Shown here: in pieces, positions 22,397 through 39,032 of the stretch
How the letters are laid out: each line of letters opens with the position of its first letter
Position numbering within the stretch: the first letter of the stretch is position 1
NCBI GenBank assembly: GCA_023145375.1
Contig: JAGLDY010000013.1
Span: forward strand, 26,868 to 90,867
Source: Candidatus Sabulitectum sp.
GTDB lineage: Bacteria > Fermentibacterota > Fermentibacteria > Fermentibacterales > JCC-6
Length of the DNA: 64,000 nt
Reading direction: 5' to 3'
Program-made: the position numbers and the translations under genes
The notes under the pieces: generated by a model
What the model saw: only the letters and a program-made list of their open reading frames with translations
The model's database searches: none
What the model was told of the DNA's origin: nothing

Positions 22397-23677
22397 TCAG
22401 GAGATCGCTACGCGGCCCTCGAGATGAACTTTCATGCAGTTGATCATGTTCATGTGATCAACTGTTCCAGCCATTTCACGGACGGAATGCATTGAGAGCA
22501 TGGGGTTGCCCACATCAACAGTGGGAATGCCTGTGCCGGTTGCAGCTATGGGCCCCAGAGTACCACCGCTTTTGCCATCTGCACGAGAAACGAATTTCTG
22601 AATGGGGCTCTCTGCAAGTTCAGCACACTTCATGAAGTAGGCGGAAGTTCTGGCTGTTGAAGCGTAACTGCCCCCTGCGGACATTTTGATAGCAGGGCCC
22701 TTGTTGAGCTGAGGTTTTGAGAGTTTGCTGTGTTTTCCTGCCCAGCCGGGGTGGATGGCATGAACGCAGTCAGCACTAACATTCATGCTTCGGCTGCAGG
22801 CTCTGAAGAAATTGGCTCTTGTACCGGAAATGCGTTCAAGAACCCTTTCCATGAATGGGGAGGCGGCTCCGTTAACAGTTCTGGAGCCTATCTCCTCATT
22901 GTCAAAGAGAAAAACAACAGCAGTGGGATCAGCTGATCCTGCTTCTGTGATGGCAGCCAGTGCAGCATGGGTGCTGGCCTGATTATCTATACCTGCTGAT
23001 ATGAGGTAGTTATTGTCTATCCCGTTTAACGCAGGTAGCTGGATGTCGAAAACCTCTCCGGAAAAATCGATGATCTGATCAACCTTGATCCCCACTGATT
23101 TCGCGATGATCACCTTGAGTCTGTCAAAATCATTCTCCTCATCACCGAATACAAGAAGAAGTTGCTCCTCTGCATTCGCCTTGAAGCCATCCTTGTTTGC
23201 CGTACGATTGAGGTGAATAGCAGGTGAAGGGAATCTCAGGATAGGTTCGTCTATTCTGAAGGTTTTTGTGGTAAGATCGTTGTTCTCCATGAAGGACACA
23301 CTTCCGGCAAGCCCCAGATCCCGGTCAAACCAGGTGGCAACAGTGGGACCACCGTATATCTCAACACCGAGTGTTGAAAGCCCTTCTGAGTAGGCATAAG
23401 GTTCAGGTTTCAGTCTGAAGCCGGGGGAATCTGTGTGGGTACCAATTATTCTGAAACCTGCTTCTGCCGCAGGTTTGACGCCGACGATAAAAGCAGCCAG
23501 AGTTGAAGCAGAATCGATCACATAACACTTGTCGCCGATGCTGAGCTTCCATTCATCTACCATATGAATCTCTTTGAAACCCTCTTTGTCGAGCAGTTCT
23601 GATGCAGTCTGCACACAGTGAGAAGCTGTAGGGGAATTCTTCAAGAATTCCATCAGTCCCTTTATATCCCTGTCCAT
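22397..23677 (-). CDS. M18 family (aspartyl) aminopeptidase
   Basis: The N-terminus FLKNSPTASHCV..., HTDSPGFRLKP and the C-terminal MLSMHSVREM are typical of M18. The start overlaps the upstream gene stop by 1 nt. Confidence 0.8.
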   Translation of the reverse strand: MDRDIKGLMEFLKNSPTASHCVQTASELLDKEGFKEIHMVDEWKLSIGDKCYVIDSASTLAAFIVGVKPAAEAGFRIIGTHTDSPGFRLKPEPYAYSEGLSTLGVEIYGGPTVATWFDRDLGLAGSVSFMENNDLTTKTFRIDEPILRFPSPAIHLNRTANKDGFKANAEEQLLLVFGDEENDFDRLKVIIAKSVGIKVDQIIDFSGEVFDIQLPALNGIDNNYLISAGIDNQASTHAALAAITEAGSADPTAVVFLFDNEEIGSRTVNGAASPFMERVLERISGTRANFFRACSRSMNVSADCVHAIHPGWAGKHSKLSKPQLNKGPAIKMSAGGSYASTARTSAYFMKCAELAESPIQKFVSRADGKSGGTLGPIAATGTGIPTVDVGNPMLSMHSVREMAGTVDHMNMINCMKVHLEGRVAIS

Positions 23678-26600: not shown

Positions 26601-27816
26601 GACCACCTATCTCAAAAATGGTATCTACCTCAGGGTCGATCTCGATGGCGGCTCTTGCCTGTGCTGATATCTCGTTCCTCACAACATCCGCACCGACGAA
26701 ATCACCTGTCATGTATCTACCACTGCCTGTCACTCCCACGCCGAGTACCGGTGCTGAACTCAGCCTGGGTCCCATGGTCCGGAGACCGTTCTTAACTGCC
26801 TCCAGTGGTTTTCCGGCTGTTCTCAGGTACAGACGACCCACTACCTTTCCACCTGTGGATACAGCAGCAAGATTGGTGCTGATGGACCCCACATCAATGC
26901 CCAGATAGATACCCTCTGGTGGAAGTTCCTCCGAAATGGTGAAATCAGCCTTCTCCATTGCAAAGGGTCTCAGTGAAGGCAGGATCTCAATTTCACTGCC
27001 CATGGAATTGATCAATTCCCGAACCTGTTGAACGGTCAGGATCTTCGGTTCTTTTGACATCGCCGCACCTGCAGCAGTAAGTACATTGAAGTTCTCCGGA
27101 ACGGTAACATTACCATCCAGTACACTTTGAAATGCCTTGACCATGCCTCTGTTAGCAGCAACTCCCCCAACGAACATTACAGGGTATCTGAACCGTCTTC
27201 CAGCAGCAATAACACTTCTGAAGTTTCTTGCCACTGCAAAGCAGAGACCACTTACGATCTCGGCTACAGTTGCTCCAACCTGCTGAAGGTGGATCATGTC
27301 ACTCTTTGCGAACACGCTGCATCGGCCTGCTATCCTCGGCGGTGCGTTACAGGTAACAGCAAGGTCTCCCATTTCCTCTGGTGTAAGCCCCAACCTGCCT
27401 GCCTGCTGATCAAGAAATGACCCGGTTCCCGCAGCACAGATGGAATTCATGGAAAATTCATCCATCACCGTTTCACCTGTTGCATCGGTTCGCATTAAAA
27501 GAAGTTTTGAGTCCTGACCACCCATTTCGATCACAGAGCCTGCATCAGGTAGAAACTCTGAAACAGAGATACCCAGTGCCACGACTTCATTCACCATACT
27601 GACTCCGGTGAATTCTGCAAGTCTTGATGAACCGGCCCCGGTAAGGACCAGAGGCGTACTGCCAAGTTCAGGGTGTTCCTTGAAGAGGGTCAAGAGCGTC
27701 TCCATAGGTTTACCCTGGTGTCTGCGGTAGATCTTCTGAATTATTCTTTTATCTTGAAGGAATGCTGCCTTTATGGCGACAGACCCTATATCAATACCTG
27801 CGGTTATATTGTTCAT
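23677..27816 (-). CDS. Acyl-CoA dehydratase activase-related fusion: two BcrAD/BadFG ATPase modules plus DUF2229/HGD-D-like dehydratase-type domains (PlsA/PlsR-like)
   Basis: 1379 aa. ATPase module 1: GIDIGSVAIK...GGQDSK...CAAGTGSFLD. ATPase module 2: GIDVGSISTN...GGQDSK...CAAGTGSFLE. This is followed by the Cys-rich CKACSNNCEIH...GGRCEKYE, then ARSLWFWELFPFFGTFFRSLGCRVVVS...CFPVKIAHGH and GPCRFGRY. Confidence 0.75.
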   Translation of the reverse strand: MNNITAGIDIGSVAIKAAFLQDKRIIQKIYRRHQGKPMETLLTLFKEHPELGSTPLVLTGAGSSRLAEFTGVSMVNEVVALGISVSEFLPDAGSVIEMGGQDSKLLLMRTDATGETVMDEFSMNSICAAGTGSFLDQQAGRLGLTPEEMGDLAVTCNAPPRIAGRCSVFAKSDMIHLQQVGATVAEIVSGLCFAVARNFRSVIAAGRRFRYPVMFVGGVAANRGMVKAFQSVLDGNVTVPENFNVLTAAGAAMSKEPKILTVQQVRELINSMGSEIEILPSLRPFAMEKADFTISEELPPEGIYLGIDVGSISTNLAAVSTGGKVVGRLYLRTAGKPLEAVKNGLRTMGPRLSSAPVLGVGVTGSGRYMTGDFVGADVVRNEISAQARAAIEIDPEVDTIFEIGGQDSKYISIYKGRVVDFEMNKVCAAGTGSFLEEQAEKLNIEIEDFGPMALSAAEPCRLGERCTVFMESDVVSHQAVSTPVEQITSGLCYSIVRNYLHRVVGERKIGKKIFFQGGTAHNQGVVAAFNAVLGEGREVILPPHHDVTGAIGVALMARDFMKEGQVSTFRGWSLSENSYTQDSFICKACSNNCEIHRVTLEDGTKLLYGGRCEKYETGSMQTTPGGENLFKERVENLFNCSGDEWGKGPVVGIARSLWFWELFPFFGTFFRSLGCRVVVSGKSTASTVHSGVESVAAETCFPVKIAHGHVMELLEKGVKTLFLPSILRNKPQGDFTESYNCPYIQGSPYILDAGLVLNQMTDVKVLKPVLDFSLPGDEWMSTLIETAVELGFSTGDAKRALKAAELAQTKFTEVNWEIGARAIRNLNGRRGFVIVSRPYNGSDPVVNTDLPAKLAKLGGVVIPLDLLPMSMERASEGYSNMYWHYGQRILAGGIAIKENENLHAVYISNFGCGPDSFIEHSFKEIMGEKPYLAIEIDEHAADAGVITRCEAFLDALDGAGTSGTETYEPPEVKKEDITGRTLWIPLMSEASYLAAAAVRNRGLDARVIPPTTSETVALGRTVTTGRECYPAIITVGSMLKILETGKPEKSAFFMATASGPCRFGRYCNFQRQVLEKKGYTNVPVLTATSSDSYSNIPGLGSKKFQKDLLQSLAAADILKRALLRIRPYEATPGSADALFSKWLGEFEKALEEGRSLPAQVKKAAAEFMKFSRKDTPRKPLVAVFGEIYVRNDDYANDNTIRKLEDLGAEVIYTPLTEWFDYVNHSYIEKSKQKRKTASVIKGKAIGMVITKVKRAVEKPFDTLLEGTPHVSASQVMKASAPYMAENIGGEAVLSIGAPIALLEHGGIDGAVNIYPFNCLPGTIVSAISRRIKRDKPGLPWLNLAFDGQEDTDNTSRFEAFMDQVRRLHHGKRGQKEGNR

Positions 27817-27822
27817 ACAAAC

Positions 27823-27846
27823 TCCCGGTTCACAGTTGAACCGGGA
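27823..27846 (-). promoter_or_regulatory. Perfect 10-bp hairpin whose 3' arm contains the SD of the 1379-aa gene (or terminator of the upstream lipoprotein gene)
   Basis: The minus-strand RNA reads UCCCGGUUCA-acug-UGAACCGGGA-GUUUGU-AUG. The GGGAG SD is paired in the stem and the AUG follows 6 nt later. Confidence 0.45.
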
Positions 27847-27907
27847 ATATGTTCATACAGAGAGCCTTCGGGCACCCCCAAAAGCACTTACGGACTACCT
27901 ATCGCGT

Positions 27908-28237
27908 TCAGAACGTGTAATTTACACTCATTTCATCAGATGCAAAAAGAATGCTTACCCTCTCTGCCAGACTTGCGGAATCTATAGAAGCGTACTCAAT
28001 ATCCCACTGCTGTCCATTGGCTTCCCACTGAAGAAGAATTACTGTTGCAGCCTGAGGGAAAGCCATGTCCGAGCCAAAGGTCTTATCCACACCGATGTTC
28101 TGCCATGTCTCTGTGTTCTCGGCAATGGTAAGTGTCACAGTTTCAATATCCATTCCTGTTCCATTCTTAAGCTGTATCTTTGATCCTCCGCAACCTGCCA
28201 GAAGAACGATCGCCGATAGAACAAGTATCTTTTTCAT
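27908..28237 (-). CDS. Small lipoprotein, unknown function
   Basis: MKKILVLSAIVLLAGCGGS lipobox. 109 aa. Confidence 0.5.
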   Translation of the reverse strand: MKKILVLSAIVLLAGCGGSKIQLKNGTGMDIETVTLTIAENTETWQNIGVDKTFGSDMAFPQAATVILLQWEANGQQWDIEYASIDSASLAERVSILFASDEMSVNYTF

Positions 28238-28295
28238 GTTTCCTCCAATTATTGTGGAACCTATCCTTTTACCCCGGTTTACTTAGGAAGTATAA

Positions 28296-30302
28296 TTGCT
28301 TTTAACTCTGAACGGGAGGATAGCTCTGAAACTGATCTTCATTTCAGCCCTGTTACTTTTTCCAGCAATTGCACAGGGGTACATTGGTCCCGGTGCGGGG
28401 TTTGGGATTCTTACGTCCTTTGTGGTCTTCCTGAACGCAATCGCCGTTTCTCTCCTTTCTTTTCTCTTCTGGCCGGTGATGGTGTTTATAAGGTCCATAA
28501 AGAAACGCAGACGGCCTCTTAAAGCTGAGTGCGATAAAGTAGTGATCCTTGGTCTTGATGGTCTTTCTCCGCATCTGGTAGAAAAATACTGGGAAAATGG
28601 AGATCTGCCCAACCTGAAAAAGCTTTCAGAGGAAGGATCATATACACGGATGAGAACAACAACTCCCGGCATCTCACCTGTGGCATGGTCAAGCTTTCAG
28701 ACCGGCGTAAATCCCGGTAAACACGGCATCTTTGATTTCCTCGCCGCCGACCGCAAAAGGTACCTGGCTGTTCTCAGTTCGGTAAAAACAAAAACGTTCT
28801 CAAAGAGGAACTTCCTGGGTATCAGGAAGAAAAAAATGTCCTCTACCCTGCTCCGTATGAGTAAACCATTCTGGGCTCTTCTTGGAAAGTATGGTGTCAG
28901 ATCCACGATCCTCCGGGTGCCTATCACCTATCCACCCGAGCCCCTTGACGGAAGGCTCTTAAGTGGAATGTGCGTGCCTGACCTCAGGGGTAGCCAGGGA
29001 AGCTATACTGTGATGGCTCCTGAAGGTGCTGCAACCAGTTTCACCGGTGGCATTGGCTGTGCTCTGACAGAGCAGGAAAAGGGCTTGTGGCTGGGGGTAA
29101 TTCCAGGCCCGGAGGGTTGTGAACCGGTTGATGTTCTTCTGAAAAAAAGCGGTGACGGCATCTGGGAGATTCGCTCTGGTGATGAAATGATAAAGATTGA
29201 ACACAAGAGACTGTCAGGATGGCTCACCCTCTGCTACAGAGCGGGAAGGACAAAGATCAAAGGGATAGCCCGTTTCAGAGTGACCGATGGTCCTGTTGTC
29301 TACTGCACTGCACTCCATGTTGATCCATCCAGCCCTGTTGTACCTCTCTCTCACCCGGTTCATTATTCCAGATACCTTGCAGGGGCTGTGGGGCAGTTCG
29401 CCACACTGGGTCTTGCGGAGGACACATGGGCTCTCTCGAACGGTCACCTTGATGAAAAAAGTTTCCTTGATATGGCCTGGGCTTACTACGGTGAGCGGAA
29501 AAGGATGTTCACTAATGCGCTCACTAACGGCAAAGATGGCCTTACAGTCTGTGTCTTTGATACTTCTGACAGAATTCAGCACATGTTCTGGGGCGATGGA
29601 TTTGATCCTGGAAGCGTGATACACAAAATGTACATTGAGATGGACAGACTTGTGGGAGAAACGGTTGCACGGATGAAAAAGAACCAGAGACTTATAGTAT
29701 TATCAGATCACGGATTCACCTCGTTCCATACATGTGTCGATTTTAACAGATGGCTGGTGGATAACGACTACATGGTACTTGAGGATGGAGTAAAGAGCAT
29801 TGATGCATCCTATCACGGAGTGGACTGGTCCAGAACAAAAGCTTACGCCATGGGGCTTTCAGGTATAAACTTGAACATGAAAGGTCGCGAGGGCAAGGGT
29901 ATAGTTACAAAAAAGGAAAGGAGCTCCCTAATGCTTGAGATAAAGGAAAAGCTCCTTCAGCTTAAAGATGGCAACGATCATGTTATCCGCTCTGTCAAAT
30001 TCGCCGGAGATATCTACTCAGGTGGCTATGTAAGTCGCAGCCCTGACCTGATCCCGGGTACCAACGCCGGTTACCGGGCTGACTGGGGATGCGTTACAGG
30101 TTGCGTAGGTGCGAAAACCATCTATCCCAACGACAGACACTGGAACGGTGATCACTGTCATGATTCTGACCTTGTTAAGGGTATACTTTTCACAAGCTGG
30201 AAACATGGCTCTGACAACCCTTCCATTATGGATGTAGCTCCCTCTGTACTGAAAATGCTTGGAGTTGATCCACCTGGCTACATGGACGGGAGAACGCTGT
30301 GA
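28296..30302 (+). CDS. Membrane-anchored alkaline phosphatase superfamily protein (type I phosphodiesterase/nucleotide pyrophosphatase-like), paralogue 1
   Basis: N-terminal TM pair flanks GYIGPGAGFG. Motifs VVILGLDGLSPHL, TTPGISPVAWSSFQTGVNPGKHGIFDF, VLSDHGF and NGDHCHD are present. The start is uncertain: TTG at 28296 abuts a TATAAT-like hexamer, and a CTG at 28326 follows GGGAGG. Confidence 0.75.
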   Translation: MLLTLNGRIALKLIFISALLLFPAIAQGYIGPGAGFGILTSFVVFLNAIAVSLLSFLFWPVMVFIRSIKKRRRPLKAECDKVVILGLDGLSPHLVEKYWENGDLPNLKKLSEEGSYTRMRTTTPGISPVAWSSFQTGVNPGKHGIFDFLAADRKRYLAVLSSVKTKTFSKRNFLGIRKKKMSSTLLRMSKPFWALLGKYGVRSTILRVPITYPPEPLDGRLLSGMCVPDLRGSQGSYTVMAPEGAATSFTGGIGCALTEQEKGLWLGVIPGPEGCEPVDVLLKKSGDGIWEIRSGDEMIKIEHKRLSGWLTLCYRAGRTKIKGIARFRVTDGPVVYCTALHVDPSSPVVPLSHPVHYSRYLAGAVGQFATLGLAEDTWALSNGHLDEKSFLDMAWAYYGERKRMFTNALTNGKDGLTVCVFDTSDRIQHMFWGDGFDPGSVIHKMYIEMDRLVGETVARMKKNQRLIVLSDHGFTSFHTCVDFNRWLVDNDYMVLEDGVKSIDASYHGVDWSRTKAYAMGLSGINLNMKGREGKGIVTKKERSSLMLEIKEKLLQLKDGNDHVIRSVKFAGDIYSGGYVSRSPDLIPGTNAGYRADWGCVTGCVGAKTIYPNDRHWNGDHCHDSDLVKGILFTSWKHGSDNPSIMDVAPSVLKMLGVDPPGYMDGRTL

Positions 30303-32248
30303 AAAGAAGAGACTTTCTTAAAAAAGCTCTACTGACACCTGCAGCTCTTGCAGCGCTCAGCGCAGGTTGCGGTAAAACAGCCGGCGTATCCGGCAAAAGA
30401 CTGATCGTACTGGGCGTTGACGGAATGGACCCGAATCTTCTTGAGAGTTTTGTGGAAAAAGGGCTGATGCCCAACACGAAACGACTGATGGAGATGGGCA
30501 GTTTCAGCAGGCTGGGTACATCGAATCCCCCCCAGAGCCCTGTTGCATGGTCAAATTTCATAACAGGAGCCCCTCCACCGGTTCACGGTATTTTTGATTT
30601 CATACACAGAGACCCTGAAACCATGAGACCATTTCTCTCCATTTCCGAGGTCTCCCCGCCGGATTCAACTCTGAACCTGGGAAAGCTCCGGTTACCCATC
30701 TCCGGTGGAGGTGTCGATCTGTTAAGAAAAGGCACACCTTTCTGGAATTCCCTGCTTCAAAGGGGTATACCGGTGACCATGGTGAAACTTCCTGTTGATT
30801 TCCCGCCTCCCCCTGCAAACAGCCACGGGTTGTTCCTCTCCGGCCTGGGGACCCCTGATATACGAGGCAGCCAGGGAAGCTTTACCTTCTTCACAGACGA
30901 TCCAAGAGCCATATCCGATGACACTGGAGGTGGTGTTGTGATCCCTGTACGGGATTATGGCAACGGCTGTTACACCTGCCGTGTGGATGGTCCTGCAAAT
31001 TCTCTCATAGAGGGAAATCCCACTATGAGTGTTGAAGTTAAAGCCTGGGTGGACAGAGATTCCAGAGCTGTAAGGATCGATATGGGAGATGCTTCCGTTG
31101 TCATAGGTGAAAAACAGTGGAGTCCCTGGATGCATTTCAGTTTCCCTGCACTTGGCCCGTTATCCACAGTTCACGCAATCGGCAGGTTCTATCTGAAGGA
31201 AGCTGCACCAAAGCTGAAGCTCTATCTCTCCCCTTTGAATATTGATCCCGAGAACCCGGCCCTTCCCATTTCCAGCCCTGACTGGTACTCAAGGGATCTG
31301 GCTGAAGATGCAGGTCTCTTTTACACACAGGGATTTCCCGAGGATACCAAAGCTCTGTCCAGAGGGATCTTTAACGATGACGATTACCTCTCCCAGGCAG
31401 AAATGGTCCTTAAAGAGAGAATGAGCCTTTTCCACTCGGTTCTATCCAGATACAGAGAAGGACTTCTGTTCTTCTACTTCACCAGCCTGGATCTGAACGT
31501 CCATATGTTCTACCGGTCAATGGACCCTGCAAGCCCTCTCTACGACGCAACGGAATCAAGATTTTCCGGTGTGATCGCCGATCTCTACTTCAGAATTGAT
31601 ATTGCTGTGGGTGAAGCAATGGAGCTTCTTGACCACAGAACCGAAATAATTCTTCTGTCCGACCACGGTTTCGCTCCTTTCCGCAGAAGCTTCAACCTTA
31701 ATTCATTCCTCGCTGCAGAAGGTTTTGCTGATATTTCCTCCCCATACCAGAGAAACAGTGATATGTTTGCCTGCCTGGACTGGAGCAAGACTGGAGCCTA
31801 CGGTCTGGGTCTAAACGGTCTTTACATAAATCAGGCTGGAAGAGAAAAGAACGGGATCATTACTTCCGCGGACAAGAGAAGTCTCATGGAAAGGTTGAAA
31901 TCATCTCTTGAAGGTGCCATTGATCCGTTAACCGGTGAAAAACCTGTAAAGAACCTCTTCATCCTGGAGGATGTGTACCCTGGCTATGATATGCCCCCCT
32001 GGGCACCTGACATGCTGGTTGGCTACTCCCACGGCTACAGGGCAAGCTGGGAGACAACCCTGGGAGCATTTCCAGAAGGGGTCATAACAGACAACATGGA
32101 TCCATGGAGTGGAACACACTGTATCTCCCCTGATGTCTGCCCCGGCTCACTTGTAACATCCTTGAAAACCATTCCCGCTAATCCCACCCTGACGGAGATG
32201 GGTTCATTGATCAACCGGATCCTCACTGACGAAGATAGTGTTTTATGA
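30299..32248 (+). CDS. Tat-signal lipoprotein, alkaline phosphatase superfamily (PF01663-like), paralogue 2
   Basis: The GTG start overlaps the upstream stop (GTGA). MKRRDFLKKALLTPAALAALSAGCGK carries a twin-Arg plus lipobox. Motifs LIVLGVDGMDPNL, SNPPQSPVAWSNFITGAPPPVHGIFDF, LLSDHGF and SGTHC are present. Confidence 0.75.
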   Translation: MKRRDFLKKALLTPAALAALSAGCGKTAGVSGKRLIVLGVDGMDPNLLESFVEKGLMPNTKRLMEMGSFSRLGTSNPPQSPVAWSNFITGAPPPVHGIFDFIHRDPETMRPFLSISEVSPPDSTLNLGKLRLPISGGGVDLLRKGTPFWNSLLQRGIPVTMVKLPVDFPPPPANSHGLFLSGLGTPDIRGSQGSFTFFTDDPRAISDDTGGGVVIPVRDYGNGCYTCRVDGPANSLIEGNPTMSVEVKAWVDRDSRAVRIDMGDASVVIGEKQWSPWMHFSFPALGPLSTVHAIGRFYLKEAAPKLKLYLSPLNIDPENPALPISSPDWYSRDLAEDAGLFYTQGFPEDTKALSRGIFNDDDYLSQAEMVLKERMSLFHSVLSRYREGLLFFYFTSLDLNVHMFYRSMDPASPLYDATESRFSGVIADLYFRIDIAVGEAMELLDHRTEIILLSDHGFAPFRRSFNLNSFLAAEGFADISSPYQRNSDMFACLDWSKTGAYGLGLNGLYINQAGREKNGIITSADKRSLMERLKSSLEGAIDPLTGEKPVKNLFILEDVYPGYDMPPWAPDMLVGYSHGYRASWETTLGAFPEGVITDNMDPWSGTHCISPDVCPGSLVTSLKTIPANPTLTEMGSLINRILTDEDSVL

Positions 32249-33012
32249 ATGTCCTCTTTGATGCTCTTCTATTCCCGTTTAGACGATTCGACCCGCTCTG
32301 GGGTCTCATGTGGATAAGCGCCCTGTCAGGGATCATGATGATCCTGGTGTTCAAGAAAACTTCAGATCAGCAGGCAATATCTCTTCTGAGAAAAAGAATG
32401 GGATCCCGGGCACTGGGAATGCTTCTATTCCTGGAAAGCCCGCCCACTGTGATCAGGCTGGCTCTTGGCCTGATAGTGGATAATTTCATTTATCTATGGC
32501 ACCTGTTAAAACCAATGCTGATCATTGCTCTACCATTTGTGATAATTACTTCACAGCTTGACGCGAGGTATTCCAGGGAGCCTCTTAATGCAGAGAATCC
32601 ATCAACAGTCACTGTTTACTGGGAAGACTCTATTCCCGAATCTCAGTACGGAGCACCGGAAGAAGGACTTATTATCTCTCCTATAGTTACCATTACAGAC
32701 TCTCTGGAACAGAGTTTTTCTTTTACCGGCAGTAATGGTATTTTTGTTCATCAGACCATTGGGATCAAACTTGGATCCAGGGGACCTTCCGGTTCTGTTC
32801 TTGTGAGAGGTGCTGAGAAAAGCAATGCTATTCAAGCTCTTTTCCGTCCGTGGAATGCAAACGCTGGAGAGGGCATACTGAAAATAAATTCACATATTCA
32901 GGAGACCCGGTACATCATTCTTGGTGGCAGGTGGAGTTTCTTTGCGGTATTTCTTGTTTTCTCCAGCATCTGGGCCATCCTGGGAACAGTGATCTTTAAA
33001 GTAAAGGTATAA
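32245..33012 (+). CDS. Integral membrane protein, unknown function
   Basis: ATGA overlap with the upstream gene. About four hydrophobic segments surround a ~110-aa soluble loop. I recognise no family. Confidence 0.55.
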   Translation: MNVLFDALLFPFRRFDPLWGLMWISALSGIMMILVFKKTSDQQAISLLRKRMGSRALGMLLFLESPPTVIRLALGLIVDNFIYLWHLLKPMLIIALPFVIITSQLDARYSREPLNAENPSTVTVYWEDSIPESQYGAPEEGLIISPIVTITDSLEQSFSFTGSNGIFVHQTIGIKLGSRGPSGSVLVRGAEKSNAIQALFRPWNANAGEGILKINSHIQETRYIILGGRWSFFAVFLVFSSIWAILGTVIFKVKV

Positions 33013-33029
33013 ATACCGAAAGGGTTGGC

Positions 33030-33227
33030 ATGGCTAAACTGAAATTCAAAATAGACAATGAACTGAAAGACCGTCTTGACAAGGTCTCGGAAGCTGGTGG
33101 CTACTCATCGGCTGAGGAATTCATTCTGCATATTGTACAGCGGGAGCTGGATAAGCTTGACCCTGGTGCAGATGAATCAGAAGAAGAAATACGGAAGAAA
33201 CTGGAAGGACTGGGATACCTGGGTTAA
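33030..33227 (+). CDS. Small ribbon-helix-helix (CopG/Arc-like) protein with acidic tail
   Basis: 65 aa. KFKIDNELKDRLDKVSEAGGYSSAEEFILHIVQRELDK has a beta-alpha-alpha pattern. The tail is DPGADESEEEIRKKLEGLGYLG. Confidence 0.5.
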   Translation: MAKLKFKIDNELKDRLDKVSEAGGYSSAEEFILHIVQRELDKLDPGADESEEEIRKKLEGLGYLG

Positions 33228-33283
33228 GGGCAGACAATTCAACATATTTTGCCATAGCTAACAGAAGAACGACGGGAGCATTT

Positions 33284-34162
33284 ATGGCTGATGTACATCC
33301 GCTTCAGGTAAAGAGGCTCAGCAAGCGATTCCCCAGGAAACGGGGACTTGGTTCTGTCCAGGCTGTCTCGGACCTCTCTTTTGCAGTACGGCAGGGTGAG
33401 ATAGTAGGGTTCATAGGTCACAACGGAGCAGGAAAAACCACAACTATCAAATGCCTGCTGGGACTTCTCAAACCATCTGAAGGCAGTATCTCTCTCTGGG
33501 GTTATACACCTGCCTCCCGGAAGGTAAGAGCCAGGATAGGATACATACCCGAGAACCCGGATTACGATGATTCTTTTTCACCCATGGAGTACCTGAGCAT
33601 GTTCGCCTCCATGAGGGGGCTGTCTGGAGATGATAAGAGCTGGTTGAAACTCCTGAAGAGGGTTGGCCTGTCCAGCTGGGAAACAACTGGTATCAGACAG
33701 TTTTCCAAGGGCATGAGACAGCGCATGAGCCTGGCCATTGCTCTACAGTCAAATCCCGACCTGCTGGTTCTGGATGAACCAACAGGCGGTCTTGATCCCA
33801 TGGCAAGAAAGGAATTCAGAGAAATCATCATTGAGGAGAACAAAAGAGGAGCTTCGGTCTTTCTCTCTTCTCATATTCTTTCAGATGTTGAGACCATCTG
33901 TCACAGAGCTGTTATTCTTTCCCGCGGAAAACTGGTTACAGAAGGCTCTATGAAGGAACTTCTAGGTGGCGAGAACTTGTACAGAATAGTAGTTATCAGC
34001 AGAAAGACCGGCGAAGAAATTGAGGAGATAATACCGGAAGCTGATCTACAGAGCAGGATTGACTCTTTGAGAAGAGACAATCTGCCCATAGTGAAAGTGG
34101 AAATGGCCCTGAAATCGCTGGAAGATGTTTTTCTCTCAGCAGCAGGGGGTGAGAGCAAATGA
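33284..34162 (+). CDS. ABC transporter ATP-binding protein (ABC-2 subfamily type)
   Basis: Walker A GHNGAGKTT, signature FSKGMRQR and Walker B LLVLDEPTGGLD. Confidence 0.85.
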   Translation: MADVHPLQVKRLSKRFPRKRGLGSVQAVSDLSFAVRQGEIVGFIGHNGAGKTTTIKCLLGLLKPSEGSISLWGYTPASRKVRARIGYIPENPDYDDSFSPMEYLSMFASMRGLSGDDKSWLKLLKRVGLSSWETTGIRQFSKGMRQRMSLAIALQSNPDLLVLDEPTGGLDPMARKEFREIIIEENKRGASVFLSSHILSDVETICHRAVILSRGKLVTEGSMKELLGGENLYRIVVISRKTGEEIEEIIPEADLQSRIDSLRRDNLPIVKVEMALKSLEDVFLSAAGGESK

Positions 34163-34914
34163 AAACTGTTTTTACCTTCTCTCTCATGACTTTAAGAATG
34201 CTGGCTCGCAGAAGAACACTGTGGGGAATTCTTATTGTGATCTTTCTGGCACTGGTTGGAATATCATCGGTACCCTCCTTTGATGTGGGCAACCAGGGCA
34301 GGTTCATTCTTGACTTTGGTCTATTCGGAATTGAGGTTGGCGCCCTGCTGCTTGCACTGGGTCTTGCATCCAACCTGTACCCCAGAGACCGGGAGACCAG
34401 GAGCCTTATGCCCCTGCTTGCAGTTCCACTGGCCCGGTGGCAATACCTTCTGGGAAGATTCTTCGGGGCAGCCCTGGTTCAGGCTGCTGCTCTCATAGTA
34501 ACATGTCTCGGTCTTATGCTGATCCTTCTTTTCCATGAACTTCCCATCCCTGCGGATCTGCTCCCTGCAACCCTGCTTATAATTGTCGAAGGATGGTTCC
34601 TTCTATCAACGGTGTTCTTTTTCAGTTTTATTGCCTCACCACCGCTGAACTGGCCACTGACCACAATGCTCTTCGTGGTCAGTCAGATGAGCGTCTCTGA
34701 ATTCGTGGGCATCATGCCATCTGCACCGGGGTTCATGAGATTTGTTCGCCTGCTTCTTCCCCACGCTGATGTTTTTCACATAAAAGATCCCATAGCTCAT
34801 GGATTCGAAATTGAACCGGTGTACTTCATCATTGCCATTTTTTATGGGCTATGCTACGCCGCATTCATGCTCTCTCTGGCACTGGCTCTTTTCAGAGGGC
34901 GTGATATTAAATGA
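34159..34914 (+). CDS. ABC-2 type permease
   Basis: 4-nt overlap with the ATPase gene. 251 aa with multiple TM segments. Confidence 0.7.
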   Translation: MKTVFTFSLMTLRMLARRRTLWGILIVIFLALVGISSVPSFDVGNQGRFILDFGLFGIEVGALLLALGLASNLYPRDRETRSLMPLLAVPLARWQYLLGRFFGAALVQAAALIVTCLGLMLILLFHELPIPADLLPATLLIIVEGWFLLSTVFFFSFIASPPLNWPLTTMLFVVSQMSVSEFVGIMPSAPGFMRFVRLLLPHADVFHIKDPIAHGFEIEPVYFIIAIFYGLCYAAFMLSLALALFRGRDIK

Positions 34915-35318
34915 GATGGACTTTCGCCACAGGAACCATCATTCCTGTTTTTGCACTTCTGGTGCTGTCAGCCTGCAGCACAGACTATGATGTAACCGAG
35001 GTGGCTCCTGCAGAACATCTTGTCACGGATGAACATGCGGGACATGATCATGCACCTGGCGAACCCTGCTATGAGACTGATATTGAAAGTGAACAACCAC
35101 TTACCGGTGAAGAGACTACATCCATAGATGAAGAAAGAGAAGCAGCTCACGCAGGTCATGCGCACGATGAAGGCGACAGAAATCACGGGACACAGTGGTT
35201 CTTCAACCAGCCCTGGGCTGCACCTTTCATCTGGGGAAAGCTAGTGAGGGATTCTCTTGTATTTCTAGCCCTTGCTGTCGGTATTTTCTTTGCAACAAGG
35301 AAGAGAAGTAAGAGATGA
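34911..35318 (+). CDS. His-rich lipoprotein with C-terminal TM anchor (putative metal-binding)
   Basis: Lipobox LLVLSAC. Duplicated DEHAGHDHAPGE and AAHAGHAHDEGDRNHG motifs. C-terminal TM LVFLALAVGIFFATRKRSKR. Confidence 0.6.
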   Translation: MRWTFATGTIIPVFALLVLSACSTDYDVTEVAPAEHLVTDEHAGHDHAPGEPCYETDIESEQPLTGEETTSIDEEREAAHAGHAHDEGDRNHGTQWFFNQPWAAPFIWGKLVRDSLVFLALAVGIFFATRKRSKR

Positions 35319-36022
35319 AAGTGAGATTTCTTCTTCCTGTTTCAGCAATTCTTCTATTTCTGGCAGTTGTTTCCGGAGCATCTGTTTCACGAAGAGCTTC
35401 CGTTGATACCTCCCAGCATATTCAGCTGTTCGGCTCAGGATTCCAGAGACTGACACACTTCATGGCCAGTGCTTTGTATCTTCAACTTGATGATTACCAT
35501 CATATTGCACAATTTCAGGGAATGCTATGGACCGAAGTTACCGACTATCTGCCTCAAATGTGGCTGATAGCAAAACTTGACCCCAACTTCACAGATGTTT
35601 ACACAGATGCCGCTTTCCATCTTATAATTAACCTCGGCGAGGTTGAAAAAGGCCTGGAATTTATCAGAGAGGGTGTAGCGAACAATCCTGACAGTCTCGA
35701 TGTCAGATATGAGTTTGCATACCTTCTATTAGCAACCGGCGCTGGAGAAGAAGATGAGATACTGGATGAAATTCTGACATACAGATCTCTCATGAGAAGA
35801 GCGGGAGGTGACGCGGAGCAACCCTACAACGAATCCTCTTCCGCCGTTATTTTATCCGAAATTATTGATGGAGGAGCCGATTCACTTAATCCCTACAGCC
35901 TCTTCTACAGAAGACGCAGAGCCTTTGTAGTCGCTGCAGAAAGAGAAGGGCTATACTATCCGGACTACCTGTCACCGCCACCGGATTATCTGATTACAGA
36001 GAAAATGGACGGTATCCAATGA
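35315..36022 (+). CDS. Membrane-anchored helical-repeat (TPR-like) protein
   Basis: N-terminal TM FLLPVSAILLFLAVVSGA, followed by helical repeats. I recognise no family. Confidence 0.5.
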   Translation: MKVRFLLPVSAILLFLAVVSGASVSRRASVDTSQHIQLFGSGFQRLTHFMASALYLQLDDYHHIAQFQGMLWTEVTDYLPQMWLIAKLDPNFTDVYTDAAFHLIINLGEVEKGLEFIREGVANNPDSLDVRYEFAYLLLATGAGEEDEILDEILTYRSLMRRAGGDAEQPYNESSSAVILSEIIDGGADSLNPYSLFYRRRRAFVVAAEREGLYYPDYLSPPPDYLITEKMDGIQ

Positions 36023-36525
36023 ATGTTACCATTCCCAGGGAGCTTGCAGCAAGGATCGTATGGTTCTGCAGTCGCAAGAATGTGCAGACTGGAGACAATG
36101 TAATAGATAAGAACAGCACTGACCGTGATATTTACATCATCAGCAGAGGTCAGTTCAGGGTCCACGATGACTCCGCTGGAGAAGACTTCGTTCTGGCCAT
36201 ACTCAGACGGGGAGATATTTTTGGTGAGATGTCCTTCCTTGACGGTTCCACCAGGTCTGCATCTGTAACAGCAACGTGCAACGGCAGTCTTTTGATCATG
36301 GGGGAAGAAGAGTTCTCAAACATGCTGGAAAAAGAACCTGAAGTTGCAGTTCAGTTTCTCAGATTTCTTTCAGGAGTTGTCAGCGGAAGACTGAGAGTAG
36401 CAAATGATGCTCTGCTCCAGGTGGCTTTTGGAGAAGGAGAAACCATAAATCAGGAATACGCACATCTTAAAGAAGCCATAGCGGAAATGCACGCTGCTGT
36501 AAGAATGGAACTGGAAGAGACCTGA
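36019..36525 (+). CDS. Stand-alone cyclic nucleotide-binding domain protein
   Basis: GDIFGEMSFLDGSTRSASV is the phosphate-binding cassette. 168 aa with no DNA-binding HTH after it. Confidence 0.75.
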   Translation: MNVTIPRELAARIVWFCSRKNVQTGDNVIDKNSTDRDIYIISRGQFRVHDDSAGEDFVLAILRRGDIFGEMSFLDGSTRSASVTATCNGSLLIMGEEEFSNMLEKEPEVAVQFLRFLSGVVSGRLRVANDALLQVAFGEGETINQEYAHLKEAIAEMHAAVRMELEET

Positions 36526-36537
36526 TCCACAATCAGG

Positions 36538-36864
36538 TCAATCAGAATCTTCATGGATCGGGAGTACCTCCCACAAAAAACTTGATCCGCCTTCAATGGG
36601 AATATTGGAAAAGGAGAATGTTCTCCATTCGCAGTCTTCAACCCTGAAATCGTACCACCCTTCAGTAATCTGAAATATAGCTGAACTGTCAGGGGGCAGA
36701 ATCGAGAGCCCCAGCATGTCTATCCACTTCTCACGGCCGGATTCCGTGACCCACACGAAGTAGAACTCCGTGGAAGTACAGTTCTTTATCTCAACGGTGG
36801 CACTTCCATACCCGGCGAGAGCCGTCAAAGACAGCAGGCACAGCAACAGCAAGGATATTTTCAT
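36538..36864 (-). CDS. Small secreted protein, one copy of a recurrent ~85-aa domain
   Basis: Signal peptide MKISLLLLCLLSLTALAG. TVEIKNCTSTEFYFVWV...W.DMLG...YDFRVEDCE is collinear with both repeats of the 53817..54464 product. Confidence 0.55.
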   Translation of the reverse strand: MKISLLLLCLLSLTALAGYGSATVEIKNCTSTEFYFVWVTESGREKWIDMLGLSILPPDSSAIFQITEGWYDFRVEDCEWRTFSFSNIPIEGGSSFLWEVLPIHEDSD

Positions 36865-36923
36865 TTTTCCGTGTAACTCCCTTCACCAGCCTTTACCCCT
36901 TCAAGCCTTCCCGGTTCCCTGCA

Positions 36924-39032
36924 TCAGATCATGGACAGACTGATTCTCTTTCTTGCCCTCTCAATACTTATAACAGTAACATCAACCTTCATGCCTGCAT
37001 GGACAACCTCAGACGGATGCCTTATCCACCTGGTGCTCAGTCTGCTTACATGGACAAGCCCGTCAGTGTGCACCCCTATATCAACAAATACTCCAAAATC
37101 TGTAACATTGGTGACCAGACCAGGCAGTTTCATGCCATCTGCAAGGTCATCAATGGAGTGTACATCTGCAAACGAGAATGACTCAAAAACACTTCTGGGA
37201 TCTCTCCCGGGTTTATCGAGCTCCGCCATGATATCCCGAAGTGTGGGTATTCCCCTTGTCTCCGTGACATAATCATTAAGCCTTACCTGCTCTCTCAGTT
37301 CAGCACTGTTCATGAGTCCGCGAACATCCGTTCCAGCATGAGCTGCCATCTCCTCCACCACGGAATAGCTTTCAGGATGCACTGCACTGCTGTCCAGAGG
37401 GTTTAATGCATGATCCACGCGAAGAAATCCCGCGCACTGCTGGAATGCCACAGGTCCAATGCCTGTTACCTTCTTCAACTGGACCCTTGAAGTAAACTCT
37501 CCCTCTGAATCTCTGTATTTTACTACAGAAGACGCTCTTGCTGGACTAAGTCCGGAAACATAAGAGAGCAGTTTTGCACTTGCAGTATTCAAATTGACAC
37601 CCACAGAGTTCACGCATGACATCACGGTATCATCCAGTGCCTGCCTGAGATTCTTCTGGTCCACGTCATGCTGGTACTGCCCGACACCTACGCTTCCAGG
37701 GTCTATCTTCACCAGTTCAGCAAGGGGGTCTTGAAGCCTTCTTCCAATGGAAATAGCGCCTCTTACAGTAAGGTCCAGTTTCGGAAACTCTTCCCTTGCT
37801 ATCTTCGATGCAGAGTAAATGGAAGCGCCACTCTCATTCACCATAACAACAGGTATCTCCAGTTCAAGACCTCGAAGAAAGCTTTCTGTTTCCCGCCCTG
37901 CAGTTCCATTTCCAACGGCAATGTACTCCAGACAATGTTTTTTTATAAGCTTCCTGACCTCGGCAGCAGCAGAATCCGCCTTTCCCGTCACAGGAAAAAT
38001 GGTGGCAAATTCAAGAAACCTGCCCCTTTCATCCAGGCATACAGTCTTGCAACCAGTACGAAACCCCGGGTCAATTGCCATTGTTCTTTTTCCACCAAGA
38101 GGTGCCGCCATGAGAAGTTCGCGGAGATTCAGAGCAAAAACTGCTGTAGCTTCCCTGTCTGCCTTCTCCTTGGAAACCAGCCTCACCTCTGTTTCCATCT
38201 GAGGTCCCAGAAGTCTTTTTAAACCATCCTTCAAAGCCAGGAGAACCTGTTCGCCACAGAGGTTACTTCTCAAATGAAAATGCTTTTTCATGATCGAGAT
38301 GGCAGTTTCCTCTTCCACCCGGACCGTAAGATTCAGAAAAAGCTCCCTCTCCCCCCTCCGCATGGCGAGAACCCTGTGGGATGGGGCACCGGACACCTTC
38401 TCAGACCAGTCGAACCAGTCACGGAACCTCTTCCCTTCCTCTTCCTTGCCTTTTATTACCTTGCATACGAAACGACCTCTGTATAAATAAAGTCTTCGCA
38501 TCTCTGCTCTTACTCCTGGATCATGGGACATTCTTTCAGAGATGATATCTCTGGCCCCTTGAAGAGCTTCCTCAACATCTGCAACACCCTTTTCCACAGA
38601 GACAGAAGACCGGGCAAGCAGGGCAGGATCATCACTGTCATTCTGCTCCAGCAGCAGTTCCGCCAATGGCTCAAGCTCCTTCTCTATAGCCTTTGATGCC
38701 CTTGTTCTCCGTTTTTGTCTGAATGGCAGGTAAATATCCTCAAGTTCAGTTAGATCAGCAGCCTTCCTGATACTGGATTCCAACTGCCCGGTAAGCAGCT
38801 CACGCTCCTTCAGGGAGGAAAGAACAGCACTTCTCCTCTTCTCCAGTGCCTCCAGTCTCTGCCAGGTATCACGAAGGGACGTAAGAACAACCTCATCCAT
38901 TCCTCCTGAAGCCTCTTTCCTGTACCGGGCAATGAACGGTATGGTTGATCCCTGTTCCATCAGATCAAGTACCGCCGTCACCCTGCGGGAGTCCAGCCTC
39001 AGTTCAGAAGTAATTCTTTCTTGAATGTTCAT
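36924..39032 (-). CDS. tex: Tex-like transcription accessory protein (S1 RNA-binding)
   Basis: The conserved N-terminus MNIQERITSELRLDSRRVTAVLDLMEQGSTIPFIARYRKE begins at codon 92 of ORF 36924..39305. The C-terminal S1 domain is LPGLVTNVTDFGVFVDIGVHTDGLVHVS. Confidence 0.85.
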   Translation of the reverse strand: MNIQERITSELRLDSRRVTAVLDLMEQGSTIPFIARYRKEASGGMDEVVLTSLRDTWQRLEALEKRRSAVLSSLKERELLTGQLESSIRKAADLTELEDIYLPFRQKRRTRASKAIEKELEPLAELLLEQNDSDDPALLARSSVSVEKGVADVEEALQGARDIISERMSHDPGVRAEMRRLYLYRGRFVCKVIKGKEEEGKRFRDWFDWSEKVSGAPSHRVLAMRRGERELFLNLTVRVEEETAISIMKKHFHLRSNLCGEQVLLALKDGLKRLLGPQMETEVRLVSKEKADREATAVFALNLRELLMAAPLGGKRTMAIDPGFRTGCKTVCLDERGRFLEFATIFPVTGKADSAAAEVRKLIKKHCLEYIAVGNGTAGRETESFLRGLELEIPVVMVNESGASIYSASKIAREEFPKLDLTVRGAISIGRRLQDPLAELVKIDPGSVGVGQYQHDVDQKNLRQALDDTVMSCVNSVGVNLNTASAKLLSYVSGLSPARASSVVKYRDSEGEFTSRVQLKKVTGIGPVAFQQCAGFLRVDHALNPLDSSAVHPESYSVVEEMAAHAGTDVRGLMNSAELREQVRLNDYVTETRGIPTLRDIMAELDKPGRDPRSVFESFSFADVHSIDDLADGMKLPGLVTNVTDFGVFVDIGVHTDGLVHVSRLSTRWIRHPSEVVHAGMKVDVTVISIERARKRISLSMI

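Follow-up and report, generated by a model that had tools for sequence, protein, structure and literature searches.

Two gene sets in one translationally coupled locus of Candidatus Sabulitectum: a four-gene membrane-enzyme cassette from about 15 phyla and a neighbouring exporter set

Introduction

Do nine tightly coupled genes on a bacterial chromosome make up one system? This question is raised by a locus in a 64,000-nucleotide (nt) stretch of Candidatus Sabulitectum sp. (Fermentibacterota; contig JAGLDY010000013.1, positions 26,868 to 90,867), hereafter called the window, in which nine open reading frames (ORFs), g1 to g9, occupy positions 28296-36525 of the forward strand. A first-pass annotation made from the letters alone had described these ORFs, and our ORF listing returned the same coordinates, with 4-nt start/stop overlaps at 30299/30302, 32245/32248, 34159/34162, 34911/34914, 35315/35318 and 36019/36022 and gaps of 17 and 56 nt at the other two junctions. 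That annotation read the locus as a single envelope module in which an ABC-2 transporter and a His-rich lipoprotein export, metallate or feed two hydrolases of the alkaline phosphatase (AP) superfamily under cyclic-nucleotide control. All nine genes are kept in eight related genomes (loci L001-L008) at 47-89% amino-acid identity, so they are real genes rather than chance ORFs. Because the same genomes also share both flanks, a CoA-enzyme activase upstream and a gene of 104-108 amino acids (aa) followed by Tex downstream, their synteny is uninformative on functional linkage.

We found that the nine genes very probably represent two evolutionarily independent sets, g1-g4 (set A) and g5-g9 (set B), that are split at the 56-nt gap. 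Set A encodes the paralogous enzymes AP1 and AP2, a membrane protein of 255 aa and a small ribbon-helix-helix (RHH) protein. It appears to be a tight four-gene membrane-enzyme cassette that occurs at more than 100 loci in about 15 phyla and is apparently undescribed. Its unexpected features, as read from sequence comparison, are a bacterial DUF106-like protein and a C-terminal tail shared with kinases of adenosine-5'-phosphosulfate (APS). With moderate confidence, we favour an explanation in which two independent sets became neighbours, set A being a membrane complex with a link to sulfate activation and set B an exporter; in the anatomy of set A, as described below, our confidence is high.

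Results and Discussion

Two gene sets meet at a 56-nt seam

Set A occurred without set B at all 104 loci that we analysed outside Fermentibacterota, as well as in several Fermentibacterota genomes. At none of the 104 loci was g6, g7 or g8 found beside set A, and a same-strand ABC ATPase gene lay less than 2 kb away in just two. Three loci from distant Fermentibacterota (L009-L011), whose homologues of the 255-aa protein are 40-47% identical to it, contain AP1, AP2, g3 and the RHH gene alone, with unrelated genes after them. At three others (L014-L016), detected through distant homologues of the 235-aa protein encoded by g8, the genes for the ABC ATPase, permease, small protein, TPR-like protein and cyclic-nucleotide-binding (cNMP) protein form a stand-alone operon, which adjoins the same 104-108-aa gene and Tex as in the window.

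Other genomes hold both sets with genes in between. In L012 and L013, set A is followed by three opposite-strand genes (a 138-aa gene, an ATP sulfurylase gene and a Macro-domain gene), past which lie the ABC ATPase and permease genes, a 121-aa gene, a 223-aa gene, two more opposite-strand genes and the cNMP gene. This opposite-strand block pairs an ATP sulfurylase gene with one for a degenerate APS-kinase-like protein of 138 aa, and in some genomes also includes the Macro-domain gene (L012 11136-12721, reverse strand; also L029, L033, L034 and L035). A sulfurylase block again separates the two sets in Aegiribacteria and other deep lineages, and on Joint Genome Institute (JGI) contig Ga0439198_0000096 the sets are 16.6 kb apart. 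The simplest history would be that the lineage of the window lost a sulfurylase block of about 2 kb, leaving the 56-nt seam.

The seam (33228..33283, forward strand) carries a conserved -10-like element, CATATTTTG, at 33243-33251. This block is identical in the eight relatives, in which the seam reads CTTGC, 17-19 nt and then GCATATTTTGYC, the rest of the spacer being variable. Stand-alone set B operons have a TATAAT box about 25-35 nt upstream of the ABC start codon. The conserved seam block and the box in the stand-alone operons suggest that set B probably has its own promoter.

The first-pass annotation had expected its three proteins of no recognised family, those of 255, 135 and 235 aa, to be encoded together with both PF01663-like and ABC-2 genes in other genomes. 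This expectation holds by halves: the 255-aa gene is always found with PF01663 genes but not with ABC-2 genes, and the 135-aa and 235-aa genes are always found with ABC-2 genes but not with PF01663 genes. For annotation in general, the locus is a caution that nine translationally coupled genes can reflect the recent juxtaposition of two units.

Distribution and gene order of set A

To chart set A, species-representative genomes were scanned with AP1 as the seed; at least 589 loci came up, and we examined the best 80 of them. The converse scan, with g3 as the seed, used narrower sub-alignments and yielded 34 loci. Six-frame ORFs of the loci were labelled with hidden Markov models and phmmer. 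The 104 loci outside Fermentibacterota comprise 70 that were analysed after the AP1-seeded scan and the 34 g3-seeded ones.

The best 80 AP1-seeded loci came from Fermentibacterota, Bdellovibrionota, Acidobacteriota, Planctomycetota, Gemmatimonadota and Desulfobacteraceae. The g3-seeded loci came from Aminicenantes, Nitrospirota, Dadabacteria, Thermodesulfobacteriota, Spirochaetia, Armatimonadota, Cytophagia, Eisenbacteria, KSB1, Schekmanbacteria, Planctomycetota and candidate division B38. All four set A genes were present at 46 of the 70 AP1-seeded loci outside Fermentibacterota, and most of the others were cut by contig ends. Beside g3, the RHH gene and at least one AP gene were found at every g3-seeded locus (34/34), and all four genes at about 27 of them. 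Five Bdellovibrionota loci have an AP1-type gene and an RHH gene beside the g3 homologue, with an AP2-type gene downstream in L019 and L020.

Gene order differs between phyla (AP1-AP2-g3-RHH, AP1-AP2-RHH-g3, AP2-RHH-g3-AP1 and AP1-RHH-g3-x-AP2), and in every order that we saw RHH and g3 are adjacent. As the order varies while the genes stay linked, selection has probably acted on the linkage itself, rather than one arrangement having been inherited. With at least 589 species-representative genomes in about 15 phyla, set A would be a common, unstudied piece of diderm cell biology. In the open-access papers and preprints that we searched, which cannot prove absence, we found no description of set A and, in keeping with the first-pass annotation, no system with the gene set of the window. 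No Pfam or NCBIfam model covers g3 or the C-terminal tail of the RHH protein, and these databases name AP1 and AP2 no further than the superfamily.

Several variations of the cassette were also seen. In two Fermentibacterota loci the RHH gene is inverted relative to g3 and still directly adjoins it (L034 13694-13909 and L035 13680-13913, both reverse strand). Many cassettes from other phyla include one or two extra short PF01663 paralogues of 437-501 aa, which match the Pfam model over its full length and do not have the large insert of AP1 and AP2. These often flank an APS kinase gene (L104 1291-4600; L108; L120 11069-14524; L110 746-2173), and the window has none. In Bdellovibrionota, a 280-aa AP/sulfatase/PglZ-like protein is encoded between g3 and AP2 (L019 8786-9628; also L018, L020, L036, L045, L077 and L083).

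AP1 and AP2 are predicted on opposite faces of the inner membrane

The first two genes, g1 (AP1, 28296..30302) and g2 (AP2, 30299..32248), both on the forward strand like the rest of the array, match PF01663 well above its cut-off of 23 bits (E 6e-36 and 125 bits for g1, E 3e-28 and 100 bits for g2). In both proteins an insert of roughly 200-250 aa interrupts the match, and g2 is 32% identical to g1. The scores together with the catalytic residues place both in the PF01663 branch of the AP superfamily. No curated NCBIfam model matches g1 or g2. Searched alone against PDB sequences, g1 had no match, and the nearest solved sequences, reached with g2 and with an AP1 profile, were phosphonoacetate hydrolase (PhnA) and ENPP5, both weak (E 1e-4 to 2e-3).

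The catalytic residues of AP1 (D88, S127, D425, H429, D471, H472 and H620) are invariant in 115 orthologues, and those of AP2 (D41, S80, D398, H402, D455, H456 and H607) in 87. Since the metal ligands and the Ser nucleophile are invariant, AP1 and AP2 are probably both active. By its residues, AP1 is a Ser-nucleophile, two-metal enzyme of the AP superfamily, whose members need metals. The NPP/phosphonoacetate hydrolase family (PF01663) has the same catalytic core, with the full two-metal ligand set and the nucleophile in the expected motif. However, the nucleophile of NPP and PhnA is Thr, whereas AP1 and AP2 use Ser in an SPVAW motif; they also differ in their large insert, in the anchoring of AP1 with its domain placed inside the cell, and in occurring as an obligatory inside/outside pair. 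We rejected an identity of g1 and g2 as formylglycine sulfatases, as their nucleophile motif reads I/Q-S-P-V-A-W and does not contain C/S-x-P-x-R.

The N-terminus of AP1 consists of a signal-like segment, the motif YIGPGAG, a transmembrane (TM) helix and a Lys/Arg cluster. Among its orthologues, 97 of 121 contain Y[IV]GPGAG after a short signal-like hydrophobic segment. The TM helix is followed by a median of eight Lys/Arg and no Asp/Glu residues up to the GxDG strand, the first catalytic strand. Membrane topology can be predicted from Lys/Arg by the positive-inside rule, and under this rule the Lys/Arg-rich, acid-free stretch predicts that the AP1 catalytic domain is cytoplasmic and tethered at the inner membrane by the Y[IV]GPGAG anchor.

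AP2 begins differently. In the window, its N-terminus reads RRDFLK...LSAGC, a twin-arginine translocation (Tat) signal with a lipobox. A hydrophobic signal was seen in 79 of 92 AP2 orthologues, a lipobox in at least 34 of them and an RR motif in 40. AP2 is thus predicted to be the exported paralogue, at the periplasmic face.

The 255-aa membrane protein resembles the DUF106 family

Searching 1.84 billion cluster representatives with a profile of the g3 family (window gene at 32245..33012) returned 1,863 representatives when the threshold was E<=1e-3 and 1,093 when it was E<=1e-10; almost all are 255-290 aa long. In the AlphaFold 2 (AF2) model (pLDDT 85), a helix at residues 17-39 is followed by hairpin helices at 42-61 and 66-109, a beta-rich domain at 120-230 and a helix at 232-250. 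The protein is therefore predicted to have three TM helices, with a helical hairpin between TM1 and TM2 and a beta-rich domain of about 120 aa between TM2 and TM3.

A broad g3 profile matched MJ0480 (PDB 5c8j, 5c8j_I), an archaeal YidC-like DUF106 protein, with E 4.4e-6 over the segment from TM1 through the hairpin to TM2. TM3, the last helix, also matches weakly and in collinear order, with a conserved Trp aligned. With hhalign, the probability of the pair was 91.5% (E 8.6e-7), and PF01956 directly matched two of 32 g3 family members (best E 1.4e-6). Up to E 5, the only other PDB match of the profile was an immunoglobulin (Ig)-like protein, aligned to the beta-rich domain. As MJ0480 was the sole match besides this one, hydrophobic composition alone is unlikely to be the cause.

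By detectable homology, g3 thus falls within the DUF106 branch of the Oxa1 superfamily, and we consider it probable that g3 is a remote homologue of the archaeal YidC-like/DUF106 family. Several results weigh against this assignment. The relationship is seen in sequence profiles only: a Foldseek search of the PDB with the g3 model gave nothing better than E 0.2 and did not retrieve YidC, Ylp1 or EMC3. A Fermentibacterota-only g3 profile had no DUF106 match in the PDB, and hhalign found no match to a human TMCO1 sequence that was not taken from a database.

Ylp1/MJ0480 and EMC3/TMCO1/GET1 have three TM helices and a cytoplasmic hairpin between TM1 and TM2, an architecture that the AF2 helices and the Lys/Arg positions of g3 would fit. 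The positive charges of g3 suggest an N-out/C-in orientation as in DUF106 proteins, and the conserved Trp starts the last TM helix. In contrast to these proteins, g3 is bacterial and carries the beta-rich insert, predicted to be periplasmic, between TM2 and TM3, and its gene is always next to those of an RHH protein and AP-superfamily enzymes. DUF106/PF01956 has been treated as archaeal and eukaryotic only (PMC5868721, PMC8675477). A bacterial DUF106-like family that is locked to client-like enzymes would offer a simple system in which to study such grooves.

The RHH protein and a tail shared with APS kinases

The 65-aa protein encoded by g4 (33030..33227) is a probable RHH protein. The RHH_1 model matches seven of 18 orthologues (best E 2.5e-5), with the window protein below the cut-off (E 0.033). 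Weak matches connect g4 to the N-terminal region of NikR (E 0.004 in NCBIfam, E 0.019 in the PDB), and PDB matches of the family were NikR, Arc and MazE6 (E 0.02-0.2). The RHH-family profile (positions 10-63) also gave weak matches, probably due to chance, to the C-terminal domain of the RNA polymerase alpha subunit (E 0.06-0.5).

The window protein ends in ...EEEIRKKLEGLGYLG, an invariant acidic-basic-LGY pattern. A tail of LGY[ILVMF] plus zero to two residues ends all 103 distinct g4 orthologue sequences and all 115 RHH-labelled ORFs. Over all loci, this motif ends 164 of 19,938 ORFs, and five permuted control motifs end zero to five each. Besides the 115 RHH-labelled ORFs, the carriers include 31 of 78 sulfatase-family neighbours and six of eight kinase-like proteins. 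About ten of the 19,090 other ORFs carry the tail, and among six of these that were scanned, Pfam identified five as APS kinases (E 1e-57 to 1e-65) and the sixth as a member of the sulfatase family. Two labels of other tail-bearing ORFs were also borne out: the Sat one is a Sat-APS-kinase fusion, and the CysD one a PAPS_reduct protein. The tail was present in 11 of 22 ORFs with an APS kinase domain, and in 10 of the roughly 13 of those that are unfused to a sulfurylase or GTPase domain. AP1, AP2 and g3 were never tail-bearing. At L012, the 138-aa protein encoded beside Sat is a degenerate APS-kinase relative that ends in ...DEEEEIRKKLSDLGYL, and the RHH protein of the same locus ends in ...ESEEEIRKKMEGLGYIS.

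The native C-terminus of the APS kinase domain reads L.L.GYIP, so the tail looks like a duplicated or mimicked kinase helix. We infer that the tail may be a docking element for the conserved core. A difficulty for this view is that the tail occurs on cytoplasmic proteins as well as on proteins with export signals, which a single docking site cannot explain. Many of the tail-bearing sulfatase-family proteins carry lipoprotein signals, and the tail would thus, like the AP paralogues, be present on both sides of the membrane. Comparable C-terminal tags on functionally linked proteins are EEVD tails, which are recognised by TPR co-chaperones, and PEP-CTERM/exosortase sorting signals; at the set A loci, too, a short conserved motif is common to several unrelated proteins, whose genes accompany those of a dedicated conserved machinery. 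The set A tail differs in being hydrophilic and no TM sorting signal, and in occurring both on cytoplasmic proteins and on proteins with export signals.

Set A neighbours point to sulfate activation

Among the 70 AP1-seeded loci outside Fermentibacterota, 44 include PF00884 sulfatase-family genes, and 24 have genes for the synthesis or use of 3'-phosphoadenosine-5'-phosphosulfate (PAPS) within 9 kb. The PAPS-related neighbours encode CysN/C, CysD-type PAPS_reduct, Sat-type ATP sulfurylase, APS kinase, a CysQ-like inositol-phosphatase-family protein and sulfotransferases. Sat or APS kinase genes were also present in at least eight of the 34 g3-seeded loci. In L104 and L108, one operon contains genes for Sat, a PF01663 protein (460 aa), APS kinase, another PF01663 protein (437 aa), AP1, AP2, RHH and g3. 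In L057, a run of AP1, AP2, RHH, g3 and a sulfatase-family gene is immediately preceded by co-directional CysQ-like, CysD-like and CysN/C-type genes. The formylglycine motif C/S-x-P-x-R is absent from 75 of 77 neighbouring PF00884 proteins, some of which have five to seven N-terminal TM helices in an LtaS/EptA-like layout.

From this neighbourhood, we think it rather probable that the set A family is tied to sulfate activation. The window itself argues the other way, as tblastn found no sulfurylase, APS kinase, CysD/N/Q, sulfotransferase or sulfatase gene in its 64 kb. The link is thus transferred to the window genome from other genomes by homology, and sulfation there would be a prediction.

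AP-superfamily transferases that modify the envelope in the periplasm (LtaS, EptA and MdoB type) and lipid-linked donor pathways such as Arn offer a possible analogy, in function only: the first chemistry takes place on the cytoplasmic side, the intermediate is passed across the membrane, and the periplasmic step falls to an AP-superfamily enzyme. The core enzymes of set A differ from these in belonging to PF01663 rather than PF00884, and the supply genes make PAPS instead of a sugar or phospholipid donor. The shared tail suggests that sulfate activation may be physically wired to a membrane machine, which would be a possible route for periplasmic sulfation. It makes it testable whether, and by what route, sulfation of bacterial envelope components takes place outside the cytoplasm.

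Set B is an ABC-2 exporter with companion proteins

The ATPase encoded by g5 (33284..34162) matches PF00005 (E 1e-29, 104 bits) with intact ABC motifs; its NCBIfam matches are DrrA- and GldA-like and fall below the equivalog cut-offs. The permease encoded by g6 (34159..34914) matches PF12679 and PF12698 (ABC2_membrane_2/3) with E 1e-5 and 24-25 bits, just under the gathering cut-offs, and both are among the precomputed Pfam domains of most of its close homologues. An ATPase gene beside a permease gene of these families identifies an ABC-2 type exporter. The best 120 of 132 g6 homologues are all at least 52% identical to g6, and every source name given for them is Fermentibacterota or Aegiribacteria. 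Searches for homologues of g8 and of g6 (for the latter, the best 120 of 132) did not find set B outside Fermentibacterota.

The 135-aa bitopic lipoprotein encoded by g7 (34911..35318) consists of a lipobox, TDYD..EVAP, a variable His/Asp/Cys-rich stretch, a conserved RNHGTQWFFNQPWAAPFIWGKL block, a C-terminal TM helix and an RK tail. In the orthologue alignment, it has eight His residues in the window and 5-13 in every lineage. The 235-aa protein encoded by g8 (35315..36022) has an N-terminal anchor, the conserved motif LQLDDYHHI..QG..W..TDYLPQ.W and homologues in Fermentibacterota only. Its AF2 model (pLDDT 82) shows a helix at residues 3-27 and then eight helices. Two designed helical proteins aside, the top Foldseek matches of this model were TPR proteins such as OGT, CTPR and MamA (probability 1.0, E ~1e-3). 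These matches identify g8 as TPR-like by structure, with no Pfam TPR match. Neither g7 nor g8 matches any Pfam or NCBIfam family.

The last gene, g9 (36019..36525), encodes a stand-alone cyclic-nucleotide-binding protein of 168 aa. Residues 20-105 match PF00027 (64 bits against a cut-off of 27.5), and the phosphate-binding cassette GEMSFLDGSTRSA is intact. The best NCBIfam match, below its cut-off, is a cyclic-nucleotide-binding family associated with bacteriocin-type transporters. The gene directly follows g8 in three lineages, with two genes in between in a fourth. We rejected a role as a CRP/FNR regulator, since g9 has no DNA-binding domain and CRP-type NCBIfam models match its nucleotide-binding part only, far below their cut-offs. 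The cNMP domain also matches, generically, the nucleotide-binding domains of Pycsar/TIR defence effectors (PADLOC, E 3e-13).

The family guesses of the first-pass annotation (two AP paralogues, an RHH protein, an ABC-2 exporter, a His-rich lipoprotein, a TPR-like protein and a cNMP-binding protein) were borne out by these profile and structure searches. Of the three proteins that it could assign to no family, those of 135 and 235 aa keep this status in Pfam and NCBIfam, but the 255-aa protein with its 1,863 cluster representatives is no orphan. By its composition and architecture, the likeliest role of set B, which probably has a promoter of its own, is metal-related export or handling gated by a cyclic nucleotide.

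The gene order of set B had also been likened to NosF-NosY-NosL. This resemblance extends at most to g5-g7, which, like the corresponding part of NosDFYL, encode in order an ABC ATPase, an ABC-2 permease and a lipoprotein of metal-binding appearance; the JGI name of several g6 homologues, "multi-copper enzyme maturation permease subunit", is the NosY-type COG name. Hallmarks of NosDFYL are the copper chaperone NosL, the periplasmic beta-helix protein NosD and linkage to nosZ, and on all three the identity fails. Among the Pfam and NCBIfam matches listed, none of the nine proteins matches a Nos family, and ten flanking genes that we scanned are unrelated. The matches of g5 and g6 are to the generic ABC_tran and ABC2_membrane families, and the NCBIfam matches listed include neither NosF nor NosY. 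Set B differs further in the C-terminal TM helix that g7 has besides its lipobox, and in the added anchored TPR-like and cNMP-binding proteins.

A possible mechanism for set A and its alternatives

How might the four proteins work together? In the mechanism that we propose tentatively, AP1, AP2, g3 and g4 would form a membrane-spanning complex that carries out AP-type phospho- or sulfo-ester chemistry on both faces of the membrane. The DUF106-like g3 would insert or scaffold this complex. Helices on either side of short translocated segments are what proteins of the Oxa1 family insert (PMC5868721). The AP1 anchor would be a client of this kind, so g3 may be its dedicated insertase or scaffold. 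The complex would cooperate with PAPS-based sulfate activation, most likely in modifying an envelope component, with PAPS-synthesis enzymes and sulfatase-like transferases docking on the core through the tail. The RHH protein could be an autoregulator of the operon or an adaptor at the same docking site, in which case the docking site could set its availability. In this specific form, the mechanism is less probable than the anatomy it builds on, and we consider it possible at best.

A bolder version, which we regard as quite unlikely, makes set A the core of a hitherto unrecognised trans-membrane sulfuryl (or phospho-sulfuryl) relay. Here, an APS kinase docked through its LGY tail would hand PAPS to the cytoplasm-facing AP1, which would pass the activated group on to a carrier in the membrane. 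This carrier would cross the bilayer by way of the DUF106-like groove protein, and on the far side AP2 and tail-bearing sulfatase-like transferases would decorate envelope targets, the tail serving as an assembly code on both sides. The 255-aa protein would then be the first bacterial representative of the archaeal/eukaryotic DUF106 branch, with a specialised job.

One alternative is that set A is an ordinary phosphodiesterase pair for scavenging phosphate or nucleotides, accompanied by a small repressor, with the sulfate-related neighbours serving turnover of 3'-phosphoadenosine-5'-phosphate (PAP), APS and PAPS or being incidental. PF01663 is indeed the NPP/phosphodiesterase family, with phosphonoacetate hydrolase and ENPP5 as the nearest relatives of solved structure; the set of catalytic residues is complete, and about two-thirds of the loci have no PAPS gene within 9 kb. 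What this alternative leaves unexplained is why one paralogue should face the cytoplasm on a membrane anchor, why a DUF106-like partner is obligatory, why the RHH tail is common to APS kinases and sulfatase-family proteins, and why there are operons in the order Sat, AP, APS kinase, AP, AP1, AP2, RHH, g3. We therefore think it improbable.

The single nine-gene module of the first-pass annotation is very unlikely in our assessment, even though several observations speak for it and against our division into two sets. The nine genes are co-oriented with six 4-nt overlaps, the 56-nt gap contains no terminator-like site, and the seam of the window retains the CATATTTTG block but has lost the -35-like CTTGC half, so read-through could give one nine-gene transcript in the window genome. 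In many genomes of Fermentibacterota and Aegiribacteria, no more than about 2.5 kb separates sets A and B, and a phylum-specific functional link between them is conceivable. Moreover, the His-richness of g7 is conserved and AP enzymes need metals. On the other side stand the 104 loci from other phyla with set A but not set B and the Fermentibacterota genomes in which the sets are apart, as well as the lack of NosL or NosD homology. The Tat signal of AP2 implies that the enzyme folds and loads its cofactor before export and, as the catalytic domain of AP1 is predicted to be cytoplasmic, a periplasmic metallochaperone would not be needed. The idea that one unit exports, metallates or feeds the hydrolases is thus not supported, whereas the tight coupling of the genes holds.

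It has also to be considered whether the tail is a substrate, its invariant Tyr being reversibly sulfated, phosphorylated or nucleotidylated, with AP1 inside and AP2 outside removing or transferring the group; PAPS synthesis, the sulfatase-like enzymes and the RHH regulator would then all be under a post-translational switch. Such a switch would suit the Tyr, which is invariant and preceded by an acidic run in tail-bearing proteins on either side of the membrane, paralogous AP enzymes predicted on both sides, and core proteins that never bear the tail themselves. We nevertheless find it highly improbable, as the residue before the Tyr is Gly and not acidic, and as the native APS kinase C-terminus already resembles the motif, which fits a structural or binding element better. 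A toxin-antitoxin or mobile element was rejected, as the RHH gene has no toxin partner and the chromosomal flanks are conserved.

Promoter and start codon of g1

The top sigma-70-type match in the region, at ten of 12 positions, is TTTACC, 17 nt and TATAAT at 28268..28296 on the forward strand, a promoter-like site for set A. Six related genomes share the identical block AGTATAATTGCTTTT, followed by the conserved ribosome-binding site GACGGGAGG, a spacer of 6-7 nt and then CTGAAACTGAT. The called start codon of g1, TTG at 28296, overlaps the conserved TATAAT box, its first base being the last of the -10 box. Between this box and a downstream CTG, relatives carry frame-breaking 1-nt indels, and L001 also has an in-frame stop there. 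The CTG at 28326 is conserved in the six genomes and, in the window, lies 6 nt past a GGGAGG ribosome-binding site. Given the position of TTG within the box and the indels downstream of it, translation of g1 likely starts at CTG 28326 and not at TTG 28296. The product would then be 658 aa long and begin with MKLIFISALLLFPAIAQG ahead of the YIGPGAG motif.

Flanking genes and other matches

A gene for a 109-aa lipoprotein, with a lipobox at its N-terminus, diverges from g1 (27908..28237, reverse strand). Its homologues lie directly upstream of AP1 in Fermentibacterota lineages with otherwise different flanks, so it is a possible lineage-specific accessory of set A. It has no Pfam match, and no homologue adjoins the cassette at the loci examined from other phyla.

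A scan of 27000-37500 with Rfam gave nothing but a plant MIR159 match inside g1 (29907-29966, reverse strand; 25 bits against a gathering score of 74), which is due to chance. PADLOC found no defence system, its matches being limited to generic ABC ATPase and cNMP-binding domains.

Directly upstream of the array lies the gene for a 1,379-aa double BcrAD_BadFG/DUF2229 CoA-enzyme activase (23677-27816, reverse strand), which is kept upstream of set A in several Fermentibacterota. Further downstream, the window encodes a hybrid histidine kinase of 1,277 aa that contains several PAS domains as well as a PocR domain (41587-45420, reverse strand). Neither gene is linked to the cassette in other phyla.

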